Positions 43,338 to 50,226 are shown, counted from the first letter of the stretch. The stretch is DNA of 60,166 nucleotides from Pseudomonadota bacterium (GCA_031416315.1 JANOTL010000095.1:1-60166), one strand, 5' to 3'. The notes: a model not told the origin generated them from the sequence alone. Made by a program: numbers and translations.

Positions 43338-44552
43338 ATGGCAGTAACGAAGCGAACCCGAAAAACCAAGGGCCGCACGAAGACCATTTTTCATGCAGAG
43401 ATTTACGTACGCGGCGTCCGCATCGCGGACAAGACATTCGAGACGGCAGCATCGGCCCATACGTGGCATGATCAGGAAAAGCGGCGGTGGGAGTCCGGCC
43501 AAATTTCAGTTGGCCCGGACGCCGAGGACATGACCTTTCGCGATTGTCTCAATGGGTATCTTGAAGAGGCGTTCACCCGGCTCAAGAAGTCGTCCCAGCA
43601 GTCGAAGGCGACGCGGCTCGTCTCTCTGAACGAGTCGCCCGTGATGAACGTCAGGATGCGAGATCTCGGCCCGATGGTGATCGACCAGTGGCTCAGTTGG
43701 CTTCATAGGCATCCGACGAAGACGAACCCCGGCCGGAAGACTTTTCTTCTTGAGCTGGAGCTTCTGACGACGATCTTGACCTGGTACCGGAACGAGCGCG
43801 ACCCGATGTTCGTCGTGCCGATCGTCAAACGGCACCGGGAGCGGTGTCACTACAAGCAGGTCCAGGCGCGACGACCGGACTACTTCATCAAGGCCTCGGA
43901 CGTGCAGCGGTGGATCAACTGGCTCCGCCGGCAGCGGCGAAACCCGGTCTACTATCGACTCGCGACGTTCATGGTCTTGACGGGTGCCAGGGTCAGTGAA
44001 GCCTGCGGGCTCTGCTGGGACTCCGTGGAACTTGAAAGCGCGATGGCTCGGATCGTCCGGAGCGTTAGTTGGGACCACTGGACCAGAGAGCCCACGCTGG
44101 AATTCAGCACGAAGACCGAGGAGTCTGTTCGGATCGTGCCGCTCTCGACTGATATCGTCGATCAACTTGCGCTGATGCGGCAGGGTTCGGCTGGCTCCGG
44201 TCCTGTCTTTCAGGACCGAAATGGCGAGCTGCTTCGGTACAACGCGATCCAGTCGGCCTTCAACGCCGGCTTCAAGGCTCTTGGGCTGCCGTGGCGGTCG
44301 ACGCACATTTGTCGGCACACGTTCGGGACCCTGGCTCTCGTCGCGACGCGGGATCTGGGGGCGGTGCAGGCAAGCTTGGGGCACAGAAGTCGGGCGATGA
44401 CGGAACGGTATGCGAAGACTGTCGCGCTGCTGTCGACTGATACGGCTGAGAAGACGGCGCAGCTCATTCGGCTCTCGGCACCGGATCACGTACAGAATCA
44501 CGTTCTGGAGGTTGAGGCTGAAAGCAGGTCGAGAGTAGAGAGTCGAAATTAG
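43338..44552 (+). CDS. Tyrosine recombinase/integrase
   Basis: TGARVSE (R), K, HICRH (HxxR), LGH, ERY (Y); adjacent to the tRNA 3' end. Confidence 0.92.
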   Translation: MAVTKRTRKTKGRTKTIFHAEIYVRGVRIADKTFETAASAHTWHDQEKRRWESGQISVGPDAEDMTFRDCLNGYLEEAFTRLKKSSQQSKATRLVSLNESPVMNVRMRDLGPMVIDQWLSWLHRHPTKTNPGRKTFLLELELLTTILTWYRNERDPMFVVPIVKRHRERCHYKQVQARRPDYFIKASDVQRWINWLRRQRRNPVYYRLATFMVLTGARVSEACGLCWDSVELESAMARIVRSVSWDHWTREPTLEFSTKTEESVRIVPLSTDIVDQLALMRQGSAGSGPVFQDRNGELLRYNAIQSAFNAGFKALGLPWRSTHICRHTFGTLALVATRDLGAVQASLGHRSRAMTERYAKTVALLSTDTAEKTAQLIRLSAPDHVQNHVLEVEAESRSRVESRN

Positions 44553-44580: not shown

Positions 44581-44677
44581 TGGCGGAAGGGGAGGGAATC
44601 GAACCCACCTCAGACGGCATAACCGCCCGACAACGGCTTTGAAGGCCGTGGAGGCCACCAGTGCCCCATCCTCTTCC
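44581..44677 (-). tRNA. selC: tRNA-Sec (anticodon UCA)
   Basis: GGAAGAGGATGGGGCACTGGTGGCCTCCACGGCCTTCAAAGCCGTTGTCGGGCGGTTATGCCGTCTGAGGTGGGTTCGATTCCCTCCCCTTCCGCCA: 97 nt, CTTCAAA loop, long variable arm, G discriminator, next to selB. Confidence 0.93.
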
Positions 44678-44744: not shown

Positions 44745-46940
44745 ATGCACGTCATCGGTACCGCTGGGCACGTCGACCACGGCAAGACGAGTCTGCTCCG
44801 CGCCCTCACGGGCATGGAGCCGAGCCGGCTGGCGGAGGAGCGGTCGCGTGGGATGACGATGCAGTTGGGGTTCGTCTGGATGACGGGGCCCGAAGGCCGG
44901 CCGATCGGCATCGTCGACGTCCCGGGGCACGCCGACTACCGCCTGCATACGATCACGGGCGCCAGCACGATCGACGCGTTCGTCTTCATCTGCGCGTGCG
45001 ACGACGGGTGGATGCCGCAGAGCGAGGAGCACCTTTGGGCGCTGGCCGCCTACGGCATCACGCACGGCGTCGTCGTTCTCACGAAGACCGACCTCGTCGA
45101 CGCGAAGCGCTTCGCCGAGGTGAAGGCGGAGCTCGAAGTCCGATTCTACGAGGCCCTAGGCCGCGAGGTGCCGATCGTCGGCTTCTCCGCGAAGACCAAC
45201 GCGGGCCTCGAGGATCTGAAACGCGAGCTCTTCCGCGAGCTGGGCGAGCTGCCGGCGGAGAAGGACGTCGGATGCCCGCAGATGTTCGTGGACCGCGTGT
45301 TCACCGTCGCGGGCCAGGGCACGGTCGTAACCGGCACCTTGCGCGACGGGAAGCTGCACGAGCGTCAGATGATCGAGGTCCTGCCCTCTGGGAAAAAGGC
45401 CGAGATCCGCTCGATCCAGTCTTACGGCAAGCAGGTGAAGACGGCGCACCCGAGCGCGCGCGTCGCCCTCCAGCTGGCGAACCTCAGCCTCGCCGACGTC
45501 CCGAAGGACTCCCAGATCGTCGATCCGGCGCAGCTCTTCCTGACGCAGGCCGTCGACCTCCGCCTGCGGCTCTACTTAGACTACGCGATCAACCCCAAGA
45601 AAAATCCGGAAGTGATCCTCGTCCACGGCGGCGTGAAGACCAAGGGCAAGCTGATCGCCATCGCGCCGCTGGAGAACGTCGCCGCGCCCGCGTGGCACGT
45701 GCGTTTGAAGCTCGACGTCTCTCGCTTGATTCGCTTCGACGAGCATTGCCTGGTCGTCAGCTCCGGCGGCGACAAGGTGCTGGGCGCCGGGCGCGTCATC
45801 GACGAGCTGCCGACGACGAGCGTCACCGTCGCCGCGAGTCTCCTGGCGCTGGTGGACCACTTCACCGTCCACGAGTACTTGATGCTGAACCTCTTGAAGG
45901 ACGGGGCCTTCCGCAGCCGCGACCTGATGCGGCGGACGCGCTTCGCCAAGCTGGAGGTGATGCCGGACGGCGTCGAGGTCCTCGACAAATGGATCGTCGA
46001 TCGCCGTCGCGTCGACGAGTGGCTCGACGCGATCCTGGCCCTCGTCGCGAAACATCACACCGTCGTGCCGACGGACGAGGGCATCGCCGAGACCGCCTTA
46101 CAAAAGGCGATGCGCCTCGACGTCGACCTTCTCCGCACCTTGCTGCGCGAGCTGAAGCGGGAGGGCCGGCTGCAGCAGGTCGGCCCTTACCTCAAAATCT
46201 TCGGCTACGTGCCGAAGGCCGACCGAACGATGGAGCTGACGGCGACTTTGGAGACCTTGGCAGCGTCGACGGAGACGGTCGCACCCTCGCTCCTCGACCT
46301 CGAGGTGAACTCCGACGACAAGCGCCGGATCGTGGCGCGCTTCGTCGCCGACGCCAAGCTCGTCCGCCTGGGCCAGGACCACCTCGTCAGCACCCTGGTG
46401 TTCCAGGCGATGACGCGTCGCGTCGTCGAGTACCTCGGCAGCCACGCCGAGGCGACCGCAGCCGACCTCCGCGACGCGCTGAAGCTCGGCCGCAAGCTCG
46501 TGGTCCTCGTCCTGGAGGCGATGGATCACGCGAAGATCACGGAGCGAAAGGGCGAGGGCAGAGTTCTCACCGCCGCGCACCGGGCGGCGCCGGCGCAAGC
46601 CTTCGAGAGCCGAATCCGCGAGATCGCCAATAGCGACGTCCCCGAGCTCCTTTCGCATGCCGACCTGAGCGTCGACACGCCGGAAAAGGCGCAGGTCCTG
46701 ACGAAGCTCGTCGAGGACGGGATCATGGTCCAGCTCGACGAGAAGATGCTGATGACGGCGCCGGCGTTCGCCGCGGTGAGCCAGCGCATCCTCGACGTTT
46801 TCGAGCGCCGCGGACCCCTGGCAGCCGGCGAGGTGCGCGACGAGCTCCAGATCGGGCGCAAGATCGTCGTCTTCGTCATGGAGGCGATGGACCGCCAGGG
46901 CATCACCGTCCGCGACGGCGAGCGGCGCGGCGTCAAATAA
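44745..46940 (+). CDS. selB: Selenocysteine-specific elongation factor with duplicated C-terminal winged-helix module
   Basis: TAGHVDHGKT, EERSRGMT, DVPGH, TKTD, VDRVFTVAGQGTVVTGT; two copies of RD.L..GRK.V...EAMD...IT.R.G..R. Confidence 0.9.
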   Translation: MHVIGTAGHVDHGKTSLLRALTGMEPSRLAEERSRGMTMQLGFVWMTGPEGRPIGIVDVPGHADYRLHTITGASTIDAFVFICACDDGWMPQSEEHLWALAAYGITHGVVVLTKTDLVDAKRFAEVKAELEVRFYEALGREVPIVGFSAKTNAGLEDLKRELFRELGELPAEKDVGCPQMFVDRVFTVAGQGTVVTGTLRDGKLHERQMIEVLPSGKKAEIRSIQSYGKQVKTAHPSARVALQLANLSLADVPKDSQIVDPAQLFLTQAVDLRLRLYLDYAINPKKNPEVILVHGGVKTKGKLIAIAPLENVAAPAWHVRLKLDVSRLIRFDEHCLVVSSGGDKVLGAGRVIDELPTTSVTVAASLLALVDHFTVHEYLMLNLLKDGAFRSRDLMRRTRFAKLEVMPDGVEVLDKWIVDRRRVDEWLDAILALVAKHHTVVPTDEGIAETALQKAMRLDVDLLRTLLRELKREGRLQQVGPYLKIFGYVPKADRTMELTATLETLAASTETVAPSLLDLEVNSDDKRRIVARFVADAKLVRLGQDHLVSTLVFQAMTRRVVEYLGSHAEATAADLRDALKLGRKLVVLVLEAMDHAKITERKGEGRVLTAAHRAAPAQAFESRIREIANSDVPELLSHADLSVDTPEKAQVLTKLVEDGIMVQLDEKMLMTAPAFAAVSQRILDVFERRGPLAAGEVRDELQIGRKIVVFVMEAMDRQGITVRDGERRGVK

Positions 46941-46960
46941 AGACGTCGAGACGTGGAATA

Positions 46961-46998
46961 GAAAAAGGGTGGTCCATTAGACCACCCTTTTCTTTTTG
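46961..46998. terminator. Bidirectional intrinsic terminator
   Basis: AAAAGGGTGGTC-CATTA-GACCACCCTTTT hairpin with A/T tracts on both sides, between convergent genes. Confidence 0.85.
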
Positions 46999-47087
46999 CC
47001 CTGCGCGACGCGCAAGGTACGGCACAGTCGGTTTGCGAGTTCGGAAGCTAAGTCACGCTTCGTCTATCCGTCTCGTTTGAGTGGCGC

Positions 47088-48755
47088 TTAACCTCAATAA
47101 CTTCCGGCTCAAGCGCTTCCAGGTCCTCAAACACCGCCTGCGAATCAGGATCCCTGATTAGGGGATCACATGCTGTTGCCAGGGCCTCAAACACCGTTAC
47201 TGTTGATGGTGCCCTGCTCTGCCGCCTGCTGCTGCTGTTGTTGCTTCTGCTGCTGCTGCGAAGGTTGCACCTTCTGCGGAGCTTTAGGAGCGTTCTTGAT
47301 CATGTTGGCGAGCATGGCAAAGATACTGCCACCCGCTGCTGCCATTGCCGGAGCCGCCGCGACCGAGCCGGCTGCGCGCGTCGCCGGCGCCTGGGCTTGC
47401 GACTGTGCTGCTGTGCTCAAGAAATCCCCGAACAAGTTGTCTTCGGCCAGGCCGAGACCTTCCTTGCTCTTGAGATACTTCTTCAGCGGGCTCTGCTGCG
47501 CGATCGTCGTTGTGAGCGCGCGAATCTCTTGCTCGGTCGCTGCCACCATGCCGTACGTCCGCGGAAAGAAATCCTGGACGATCGCCAGAGTGTTCTGCGC
47601 CGAACGCAAGAACTCGTCACGATCTGCTTCGCCTGCCTTGACGCGGGCTACGACGTCTTTCGACGGATAGTCGCCCCAAGGATGGCACTTCATGCTGTCG
47701 AAGAACTCCGCGAAGACGTAGTCGTTGAACCGAACCCTACGCACGATCTTTTGCTCGAGCGTCGGGGGTTGCGTCTCGCCTTTCTGCATGTAGGACACGC
47801 CTGCGAGCAGGTCCTCGTCCCTGAACTTCGGGTCCCCCGGCGGGACGCCTTCGAAGTTCTCTGCGATCGCCTTGGAGACGTCGCCGCGCTTCTTCAGCTT
47901 CTCGTAGTTCTTGCGGATCTGATCGGCGGCACCCGCGCCCAGCCAGGTCTCCATGGTCTTGAGATCGAAGATTTTACTCTCGATCATGTCGACCAGGAAG
48001 TTCTGCGCGACTTGGATCTTCAAGTTGGCGATCTTGAAGTTCTCGTCGTCGCCGAGCGTGAGGACGTGACCCTTGGCCTTCTCTGCTTCCGGAGCTTCGT
48101 TCATGCGAGCGAAGAGCTGGGCGAACAGGAAGCCGAACGAGCGCACCATGGCATGCCGAATCTCGATTGCGTCCGGTACGACGTTGATTCGCATGATCGA
48201 GCCGCCCTTCGGGGAGCCGTCCTCGTTGACGGTGTCCTTGCGGGTGAGCTTCAGATCGGCCAGCTCGGCATCCGTCAGCTTGTCCAAGCGGAGGAATTGG
48301 AAGCACGCCGTGATGTACTGAATCTCTTGCTCGGTCGATTTCTGCTTGTCGTCCTCGCGGAATTTCCGCGCGCAACGATCTTTGGTCTTGGGAGTCACGT
48401 CGATGAACCCGCCCAAGGACATGTATGCGACCTGCATCTCCGGCGATATCGCCGTGAGCGCTTCGCGCACCTCCGCTTTCAACTTATCCCTCGTCTCCGA
48501 CCCTTCGATGCTCGGATCGATCTTGATGCGATCGTCCGTTGCCGAGAACATCGGCTCGCTAAATTCGGGGCTCTGCTTGACCTCGGGGCTCGCCGAACAG
48601 CTGTTCGTGCGCACCTTGGTTCCAGCAGCGAAGTTATCGAGCGTCTTGACCTCGCTTTTTTGCGCCCCTGCGGGCGGCTTGCATCCAAAGATCGTGGCGA
48701 GCGGCATACATAACAACAAAGCAGTCATGCTTCGTTGTCGCCACGTCCACGACAT
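47088..48755 (-). CDS. Lipoprotein with putative six-selenocysteine C-terminal tail (ends at 47187 if TGA is read as stop)
   Basis: Lipobox IFGC-KPPAGAQKSEVK; Ala/Gln-rich linker; in-frame TGA at 47189, 47168, 47147, 47129, 47111, 47096, then TAA at 47090-47088. Confidence 0.75.
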
Positions 48756-49068
48756 ACGTTTCGTCCTCCTCTCGCTGAATGTTGGGGATATCAGGGATCT
48801 ATAACGATTCTGACATATCCGTATCGGCGTAGGCGGTCGAAACCTTAAGTCGGAAAATTGTCGCAATCCTCGCGATATCAAGGGTGATTTCGTGGTGTTT
48901 GGCCAAAAACTCAAGAAGGCCGCCACGGCGGCCGGGCGCGGCTGCGCTCACTCCGTCGCGTTTGCCGCGACCTTTTCCGTGGATTTCAACATGGCCCGGA
49001 TCCGCTCGATGTGGACCTCGGCCTCCTCCGCACGTGCCCCCGCGCTCGGCGAAAAGCCTCTGGAGTTC

Positions 49069-50226
49069 TTATCGACGAACCGGTCGATCCGAAGAGCTCG
49101 CGCGCGACGCGGGCGCCGCCTGCGAGCGCCGCGGCAATCGCACGGTGAACGTCGTGCCCTTCTCCGCGGTCGAGCTGACCTCGATCGAGCCGCCGTGCGC
49201 ACAGGCCACCTGGCTCGCGATGTAAAGGCCAAGGCCGAGCCCCGTCGGATTCGTGCTGCTGCTCGCCCCCGACGCAAGGCGCGTCATCGGCTCGAAAAGC
49301 GTCTTGAGCGCCGCTTTCGCAATGGGCGTACCGCCGTTGTGGACCTCGAGGCAAATGCCATCGTCTTCGCCGCGCGCCTTGATCGTGACCGGCATGGCGG
49401 CGCCCCCATGTTGGATCGCGTTGGCGGCGAGGTTCGAGATCATCTGCATGACGCGGTCGCCGTCCCATTCGCCCCGGAGATCGCCTTTCGCGTCGAAACG
49501 CAAGACCGCTTCGGGATGGCTGGACCCGAGCTCTGAGATGATCTGGCGGCAGACTTCCTCAAGGTCCAGGGGATGCGTTTGGATCGGGATGCCGGCGCCG
49601 AGTCGCGACCGCGTCAAGTCGAGGAGGTCGTTGATCATCCGGCTCATGCGCTCGCCGCTGGTTTGGATCAGCCTCGCGGTCTTTACCTGTTCCTCGTCCT
49701 CGGAATCCAACAGGAGCGTCGCGCCCATGAGGACGGCCCCCAAAGGATTGCGCAAGTCGTGGCCCAAGATCCCGAGGAATTGGTCGCGCGTCTTGCTCAG
49801 GATCTCGGTATAGCGCATCGCGGACTCCGCGAGCGTTTCGTCGATGGCCTCGTTGAAGCGCGTCACCTCGGATTCGCGCTCGGTGCTGTTCGCCTCCCAC
49901 AGGCGCAGCACGCTGGCCCGCAGCGCGCGATACTCGGAGAGCATCTGATCCATGTTCAGCCCCGACGCCAGGCGATCGGCCGCGTGCCGATGGCCGACGA
50001 GCGCCAGAGCGCTGTTCTTGGCGTTGCCTTTTGATTTCTCTTCTTGCTGCTCGTTCGTCTGCGCGGAATTCATGTCGCGGACGATGACCGTAAGGAGTTC
50101 GTCGGCGTGATCGCGCAGCTCCGTCTCACTCGAGTCTTTCGCCCACGGCATCAAGGTCTTCGCGAAGGCGACCCATTCGATCAGGATCTCTTCGTGATGC
50201 TGGGCGATGAACTCGGTCAGACGCAT
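49069..50226 (-). CDS. Cytoplasmic sensor histidine kinase (RsbRD_N-like + HisKA + HATPase_c)
   Basis: LGHDLRNPL, NLAANAIQHG, FEPM, GLGLGLYI. Confidence 0.9.
   Translation of the reverse strand: MRLTEFIAQHHEEILIEWVAFAKTLMPWAKDSSETELRDHADELLTVIVRDMNSAQTNEQQEEKSKGNAKNSALALVGHRHAADRLASGLNMDQMLSEYRALRASVLRLWEANSTERESEVTRFNEAIDETLAESAMRYTEILSKTRDQFLGILGHDLRNPLGAVLMGATLLLDSEDEEQVKTARLIQTSGERMSRMINDLLDLTRSRLGAGIPIQTHPLDLEEVCRQIISELGSSHPEAVLRFDAKGDLRGEWDGDRVMQMISNLAANAIQHGGAAMPVTIKARGEDDGICLEVHNGGTPIAKAALKTLFEPMTRLASGASSSTNPTGLGLGLYIASQVACAHGGSIEVSSTAEKGTTFTVRLPRRSQAAPASRASSSDRPVRR

Follow-up and report, generated by a model that had tools for sequence, protein, structure and literature searches.

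Selenoprotein P (SELENOP) of animals ends in a clustered tail rich in selenocysteine (Sec), preceded by a thioredoxin-like N-terminal domain. The protein is exported, its message has many in-frame UGA codons and 3' UTR elements, and it occurs in full-length and truncated forms (PMC5727441). In bacteria, decoding of the E. coli fdhF type relies on selA, selB, selC and selD and on a short stem-loop, the SECIS element, with a G in its loop. Bacterial SECIS elements have a stem of 6-8 bp and a loop G about 20 nt after the UGA (PMC4605307), the range of loop positions being 16-37 nt (PMC10778597), and they are stated to lie within coding regions (PMC13188914); a SECIS past the stop codon is known for C-terminal Sec, in SaoC and in engineered TrxR (10.1101/2022.07.06.499078, PMC10778597). 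A 2026 inventory counts 119 prokaryotic selenoprotein families, which according to its available text mostly hold one Sec and in a few cases two or three, three being the maximum; its multi-Sec families include the selenobacteriocin TIGR04081 with 2 Sec and the arsenite methyltransferase/AhpD family NF041537 with 3 Sec (PMC13188914). The UXX-star and MbdU double selenoproteins likewise carry more than one Sec in a bacterial protein.

Here we describe a locus of a Pseudomonadota bacterium, located in a stretch of 60,166 nucleotides (GCA_031416315.1 JANOTL010000095.1:1-60166, hereafter the window), in which a lipoprotein gene convergent with selB contains six in-frame TGA codons. It resembles the fdhF type in its sel genes and in its short stem-loop with a loop G, and a spacing of 19-21 nt is found in genes of a further genome (G017) and at the second TGA of a paralog on contig C121. 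It differs from that type by six UGA per hairpin, by a hairpin placed after the stop codon and 83-201 nt away, and by a SelB with a doubled winged-helix module and a GRK signature. SaoC and engineered TrxR share the downstream position of the hairpin, and the G017 genes are of the same kind; however, the hairpin lies there within about 37 nt of one UGA, whereas it is here far from six. Compared with SELENOP, the bacterial machinery, the lipid anchor, a 19-nt hairpin in place of a eukaryotic SECIS and a putatively zincin-like N-terminal domain set the locus apart, and we claim a functional analogy only, not homology. Selenobacteriocins also have a Gly/Ser/Sec peptide, with the motif SGUG (PMC13188914, Table 1), but here the peptide forms the end of a lipoprotein of 555 aa, and the neighbours scanned include no radical SAM gene. 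NCBIfam, including TIGR04081, gave no match at E ≤ 0.1 for the window protein or its ortholog in genome G001. The idea of a RiPP-like core, raised in an earlier note on this window, found no backing, as the scan of 7 flanking ORFs in the window, besides selB and the lipoprotein gene, returned no modifying enzyme; the G001 contig is only 2.9 kb long. We read the gene, with a probability of roughly 0.7, as encoding a lipid-anchored exported protein whose poly-Sec tail would be decoded from one distal SECIS.

The lipoprotein and its six-TGA tail

The gene occupies positions 47088..48755 of the minus strand. Its likely start is the ATG at 48755, with a Shine-Dalgarno-like AGGAGGA upstream (48764..48770, minus), and the product has 555 aa if all six TGA are read or 522 aa if the first one is a stop. 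The N-terminus (48681..48755, minus) is a predicted signal peptide with the lipobox-like motif IFG-C (Cys25), whose C-K pair is invariant in 7 aligned members and from which we infer that the product is a lipoprotein. In an AlphaFold model with a mean pLDDT of 69.6, roughly residues 26-420 are folded (47469..48653, minus), and an Ala/Gln/Pro-rich linker of low confidence follows (47190..47468, minus; pLDDT < 50, model residues 421-513), which is probably disordered. The best structural match of the core, 6fpc_A (Z 8.5, rmsd 3.7, 169 residues aligned), is near the level of unrelated matches. The top 8 matches (Z 8.5-6.4, next unrelated row 4.9) all belong to one group, made of Pro-Pro endopeptidases, an MtfA-like protein and related domains of anthrax-type factors, and Foldseek pointed weakly to the same group (best E 0.002). 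The core may be zincin-like, of the Pro-Pro endopeptidase/MtfA type. In contrast to that group, to which it is 8-14% identical, it sits in a lipoprotein with a Cys/Sec tail and bears no sign of a toxin or an active protease. The HExxH motif is absent from the window translation and from a 7-sequence alignment, and the modelled core is therefore probably a non-catalytic binding domain. Pfam and NCBIfam gave zero significant matches for the window protein.

The tail (47088..47189, minus) reads U-GPGNSM-U-SPNQGS-U-FAGGV-U-GPGSA-U-AGSY-U-G-stop, with TGA codons at 47189, 47168, 47147, 47129, 47111 and 47096, then Gly and a TAA at 47090-47088. Translation of TGA as U reproduced exactly the peptide given in the earlier note, together with its internal repeat, GV-U-GPG occurring twice with synonymous GGC and GGA. 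The same note had put the chance expectation at about 0.5 TGA; the mean number of extra TGA is 0.43 over the 2633 coding-like TGA-ending ORFs of the genome, and only 2 of these 2633 have at least six TGA in their first 33 read-through codons. When TGA and Cys were left out, the composition of the tail ranked 1/2633 in likeness to the Cys tails of the family described below (22.0 bits, runner-up 7.7). The six in-frame TGA codons are real and beyond chance. They have a coding-like continuation and are conserved in another genome, as selenoprotein genes are recognised. GC at third codon positions is 0.44 in the tail vs 0.79 in the gene body, a drop mostly absent in the 10 Cys-tail homologs checked. 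Genome-wide reassignment of UGA was considered and excluded: TGA is the main stop, ending 2633 of 4539 coding-like ORFs, and prfB (RF2) is retained.

A contig of the probable source run spans 44871-49100 with zero letter differences and is not independent of the window. Related-strain contigs from an RNA library differ from the gene body at third codon positions in 20 of the 32 differences listed. Contigs of RNA run X2 (share 0.05) are about 92% alike on the gene body and provide no evidence on the tail, since none of the pieces listed covers the tail or the hairpin. Atlas matches were below 0.9 or absent.

TGA and cysteine tails in the family

A search with the single protein returned only the window protein itself, and a metagenome scan yielded 590 pattern matches with zero relatives among them. 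By profile search, the family is present in 30 of 131 genomes of the class. The closest ortholog among 41 genomes is that of G001, from the same genus and 34% identical, whose tail has six in-frame TGA, with two UU pairs among them, preserves one Cys codon and ends at TAA. The genome of the window (G000) also encodes a paralog on C121 (16496-18001; L014, L104), with the tail U-GPPSGGGG-U-FP followed by a TGA taken as stop; a hairpin loop lies 48 and 21 nt from its two TGA, and a redoxin lipoprotein gene is found downstream. A redoxin was examined as a partner of the family gene and rejected as too rare, being adjacent at C121 and at 1/19 other loci.

The three TGA-tailed proteins have no Cys in the last 60 residues before the first TGA. 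Among the 15 full-length members with loci listed outside G000 and G001, the Cys count of the last 60 residues is 7-14 in 13 members and 4 and 1 in the other two; the genomes of these 15 gave no match for SelA or SelB. In a 50%-identity library, 6 or more Cys occur within the last 60 residues of 23 of the best 35 representatives. Those with fewer include the three TGA-tailed proteins, shortened by gene callers as the earlier note had anticipated: P0007, P0011 and P0012 are stored as truncated database proteins, and P0016 and P0029 look like further truncated members. In a profile of 32 Cys tails, Cys was the residue preferred among the 20 at the TGA positions of all three tails, scoring 24.4 bits vs 7.7 for the next residue in the window, 22.3 vs 13.4 in G001 and 10.2 vs 4.1 in C121. 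Cys for UGA in homologs is thus seen at the level of the region and of the profile; the six-TGA tails of the window and G001 do not align residue by residue, so that the pairing of Cys with TGA is one of composition and profile, not of columns. The Cys tails of the family contain 28.5% Cys and 27.5% Gly at spacings of 2-5 residues. Bacterial metallothioneins and Cys-rich metal-binding tails form a known comparison class. The Cys/Gly richness of the family tails recalls it and may by analogy suggest metal binding; the absence of a Pfam match and the wider spacing in the TGA tails are points of difference.

The earlier note, which proposed an exported, membrane-anchored poly-Sec protein, had named three places to look, and each yielded the expected pattern: G001 carries its own six-TGA tail, relatives carry Cys-rich tails, and TGA tails occur only in genomes with SelB and tRNA-Sec. 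These results support the proposal, whose Sec insertion and function we infer.

Three further observations concern single members of the family. G016 has SelA, SelB, SelC and SelD, yet its member is Cys-tailed and the hairpin core motif is absent. In G091 (C70; L082), a reduced Cys tail is followed by four TGA after the stop, with no SelA/SelB match and no hairpin in that case; these TGA are probably due to chance. P0016 is a Cys-less, truncated-looking ortholog, 38% identical, and P0162 a single-module SelB of the same clade as the SelB of the window; both are on record from a 15,777-nt contig and the same source type. They probably come from one contig, which would make this a third selB-linked gene.

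The Sec machinery and a hairpin in the 3' UTR

The selB gene (44745..46940, plus) encodes 731 aa with a Pfam GTP_EFTU match and two SelB-wing_3 stretches. Its C-terminal winged-helix module is present a second time (46578..46937, plus), the WH4 copies lying at residues 551-611 and 672-731. On the other side, selC (44581..44676, minus; RF01852, 63 bits, gathering 47) encodes tRNA-Sec with anticodon UCA, which no other tRNA of the genome has, tRNA-Cys having GCA and both tRNA-Trp CCA. The end of selB at 46940 is 147 nt from the TAA of the lipoprotein gene, in agreement with the gap of about 150 bp given in the earlier note. This adjacency holds in the window; it does not in G001, where selB and the lipoprotein gene occupy separate contigs and the latter is followed by another gene. 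SelA, SelB, tRNA-Sec and SelD are all present in G000, and SelB, tRNA-Sec and SelD in G001, where SelA was not found (82% complete). Among the 131 genomes of the class, SelB occurs in 5 and SelA in 4, and TGA tails in two of the SelB genomes.

Of 144 complete SelB from the loci listed and 120 database proteins, those of G000 and G001 were the sole ones with two WH4 copies; the SelB-based scans brought in at least 79 and at least 80 loci of other SelB types, which are a control for domain number only. The SelB of G017 has the winged-helix module once, and one copy is found in 7/9 SelB of the clade. The SelB tree is poorly resolved, and a single-copy SelB is sister to that of the window (86/96 support). 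With seven of nine single-module proteins, a single-module sister and a weak tree, only two genomes speak for a connection of the doubling with poly-Sec, and the sequences do not show the doubling to be one event tied to poly-Sec. All nine SelB of the clade have GRK where 102/104 others have S/T-RK, a signature consistent with a distinct SECIS partner, the SECIS-binding part of SelB being WHD3-4 (PMC4605307).

On inspection of the candidates listed from two codon-model scans, which gave 43 and 91, no conventional internal-Sec gene was seen in G000, and the internal-TGA candidates looked like gene junctions or non-coding frames. SelD of G000 has Cys, and its 3 molybdopterin-family matches have no stop inside the match. 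Because no conventional internal-Sec gene was seen there, the TGA tails may be the main clients of the Sec machinery; this is suggestive only, in a genome that is 93% complete and where short genes could be missed.

Several side observations were made on the Sec genes. SelD lies with its Cys in an open frame of 827 codons, probably a fusion, and selenouridine synthase is present in 4/4 genomes tested (L038, L127; G000:C79, C137). G016 (C272; L035/L388) has a short SelB of 488 aa adjoining tRNA-Sec, for which neither client genes nor a hairpin were found in that genome. In the window, the terminal 20 nt of tRNA-Sec recur at two places upstream (26462, 39926, 44581), and a tyrosine integrase gene (43338-44552) abuts selC. 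Probably two elements have integrated in tandem at selC.

Between the convergent genes, alignment of the 3' regions of the window and G001 revealed a conserved terminator and, ahead of it, a stem-loop with a CGUNN loop. In the window the latter is a candidate SECIS at 46999..47017 (minus), with a 7-bp stem and a CGUCG pentaloop in the 3' UTR. The terminator-like hairpin (46963..46991; scored on the plus strand in the scan, with a T-run on the minus strand), kept behind the G001 ortholog, lies beyond it, and the candidate SECIS is therefore inside the transcript. A core GCG-CGUNN-CGC is found downstream of all three TGA-tailed family genes, that of C121 included, and the hairpin is absent at E ≤ 1 from 17 non-TGA full-length or Cys-tailed family loci. 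The RNA model was built from six hairpins, the same six that it scores best. Over these sequences 4/7 pairs change on both sides (covariation score 0.486, 0/500 shuffles as high), in a test with few sequences and a structure derived from the same sequences. A covarying stem of 6-8 bp with a conserved loop G, tied to an in-frame UGA, was thus found, in six sequences only. No Rfam family matched the 46999-47017 hairpin at gathering score.

The motif alone is not specific: the GC-rich G000 contains 32 matches with 3 extra pairs and 13 with 4. No TGA-tail context was seen among the best candidates per genome, either for 21 weaker RNA-model matches in G000, G001, G016 and G017 or for 8 matches in genomes without Sec genes. 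The pattern TGAGGNRGNTAR did not outperform its control, and no new gene emerged from the loci read. Folding of the whole 3' region had a z of -2.16, single hairpins ranging from -0.6 to -1.3.

The third SelB genome, G017, belongs to another taxonomic family and has a related SelB. The core has 20 matches there, of which 3 extend by at least three pairs, and all three extended hairpins follow an in-frame TGA, two codons and a TAA, with loops 21, 21 and 19 nt away; the motif by itself led to two of the three genes. Convergent with selB of G017 is a gene for a redoxin-like lipoprotein, unrelated to the family, which ends in U-GG-stop and is followed by the motif. The spacing in G017 and C121 fits the described bacterial SECIS.

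These G017 genes deserve a description of their own. L034:421-1463 (C101), the one convergent with selB, and L135 (C351) encode redoxin-like lipoproteins with C-x(3-7)-U-GG-stop and the hairpin at 21 nt, and are candidate new single-Sec selenoproteins. The product of L144:954-1525 (C863) is membrane-anchored and combines CPSGGCPQ repeats with a zinc-ribbon-like part; its gene has two in-frame TGA, at distances of 301 and 19 nt from the one hairpin detected there. This gene sits between an HtrA/MamE-like protease gene and a NapH-like gene, surroundings which we take to be possibly a magnetosome-type region. The G041 homolog of the L144 protein lacks the tail and so gave no Cys/TGA pair.

The distance between the loop and the six TGA is 83-176 nt in the window gene and 126-201 nt in its G001 ortholog, and the loop of either gene lies between the stop codon and the terminator. 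A spacing of 16-37 nt is observed in G017 and for one C121 TGA, and not for the UGA of the window and G001. Hairpins of at least 5 pairs at proximal spacing exist for 3/6 TGA in each of these two genes, probably by chance, and none has the GCG-CGUNN-CGC motif. Compared with shuffles, the spacer RNA from TGA to hairpin folds better in G001 and no better in the window gene; a short effective end-to-end length is no evidence, because shuffles show the same. Two genes, from two genomes of a single genus, carry the long-range case.

Decoding of the tail and its possible role

Very probably at least some of the TGA are read as Sec, judging from the tails, their relatives and the Sec genes; service of all six by the distal hairpin is somewhat favoured. 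Sec could also be inserted by a proximal route, each UGA having its own local and divergent hairpin and the 3' hairpin being a relic or serving for stability. TGA 1, 2 and 6 of the window and 2, 3 and 4 of G001 are indeed followed by hairpins of 5-7 pairs whose loops lie 16-37 nt away, the low GC of the tail at third positions could reflect a constraint at the RNA level, and bacterial SECIS elements are highly variable (PMC12013277). However, half of the TGA of each gene lack such a hairpin, the local hairpins differ between the two genes and none has the loop motif that G017 and C121 show at the canonical distance, and in one G017 gene 301 nt separate a second in-frame TGA from the single hairpin detected after it; we consider this route unlikely. 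A true stop at the first TGA, with the tail as untranslated 3' sequence or as the dead remnant of a Cys tail, would agree with the use of TGA as main stop (2633/4539) alongside RF2, with a codon usage that is not gene-like in the tail and with a hairpin outside the 16-37 nt range (PMC10778597). It demands, in two genes 34% identical, that six Cys codons changed to TGA while the frame and a hard stop were kept, and the composition rank of 1/2633 and the maintenance of the hairpin through compensatory changes speak against it as well, which makes it quite improbable.

The TGA might instead be read as Cys or another residue, through sulfur mis-incorporation via tRNA-Sec or near-cognate read-through, and the product would then not be selenium-rich. 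Selenium is often scarce in fresh water, and the probable source run is from freshwater sediment; Cys is the norm of the family, and the profile test cannot separate Cys from Sec. With tRNA-Sec as the sole UCA tRNA and with SelA, SelB and SelD all present, we give this reading very little weight. Least credible of all is that selection acts on an acidic +1-frame ORF of about 48 aa over the end of the gene, the TGA being by-products of T-ending codons before Asp or Glu. That frame is indeed open across the tail in both genomes, starting at GTG in the window and ATG in G001, and its codon score is slightly less negative than that of the tail (-0.26 vs -0.34). But an open frame would be expected from a Gly/Ser/Pro-rich frame 0, since a stop in the +1 frame requires a T in second codon position; the peptides of the window and G001 look unalike past the start, in C121 that frame is interrupted by a stop inside the tail, and neither the loss of Cys tails nor the G017 and C121 genes are explained.

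For the poly-Sec lipoprotein decoded from a distal hairpin we propose the following scheme. A signal peptide, a zincin-like core without the canonical zinc motif and a flexible linker would lead to a Gly/Ser/Pro-rich tail that is the selenium version of the usual Cys-rich tail of the family. SelB with Sec-tRNA would dock on the single GCG-CGUNN-CGC hairpin of the 3' UTR and supply UGA codons 83-176 nt away, the intervening RNA being looped out, and the extra winged-helix module may lengthen the reach or raise avidity. Since RF2 would compete at every UGA, a selenium-dependent ladder of forms with 0 to 6 Sec is probable. Sec insertion in E. coli reaches 30-40% per UGA (PMC4513850), and six independent events at this rate give about 0.2% of full-length product by our computation; either insertion is therefore more processive here, or a selenium-dependent ladder is produced. 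Outside the cytoplasm, the tail could form a soft-metal-binding or diselenide-cross-linked cluster, like the Cys tails of the relatives. By this analogy we put a metal-binding or cross-linking role at even odds, and selenium storage is possible.

None of the literature covered reports more than three Sec in a bacterial protein, a distal bacterial SECIS or a doubled SelB module; BSepDB entries or supplements could list these genes, and most subscription journals lay outside its scope. Nothing comparable appears in the available parts of PMC13326102, PMC9312934, PMC12013277, PMC1976440 and 10.1101/2025.02.04.636165. A multi-selenium, long-range arrangement is known from animals and apparently not described in bacteria. 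If our reading is true, it doubles the highest Sec count of the prokaryotic inventory, from 3 to 6 as far as the available text of the latter goes (PMC13188914), and breaks the rule that a bacterial SECIS lies 16-37 nt after its one UGA. A SelB/hairpin pair that inserts several Sec and leaves the coding sequence untouched would ease a known limit in bacterial selenoprotein production, and Sec in low-complexity C-terminal tails would be a class missed by pipelines. We lean slightly towards a eukaryote-like decoding built from bacterial parts, where one 3' UTR SECIS and a doubled SelB would serve six UGA up to 200 nt upstream in an analogue of selenoprotein P, the Sec machinery being kept mainly for the poly-Sec protein. 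The same hairpin, canonical with a single-module SelB and long-range with a doubled one, would then represent a natural transition, open to testing, between proximal decoding and decoding from the 3' UTR.
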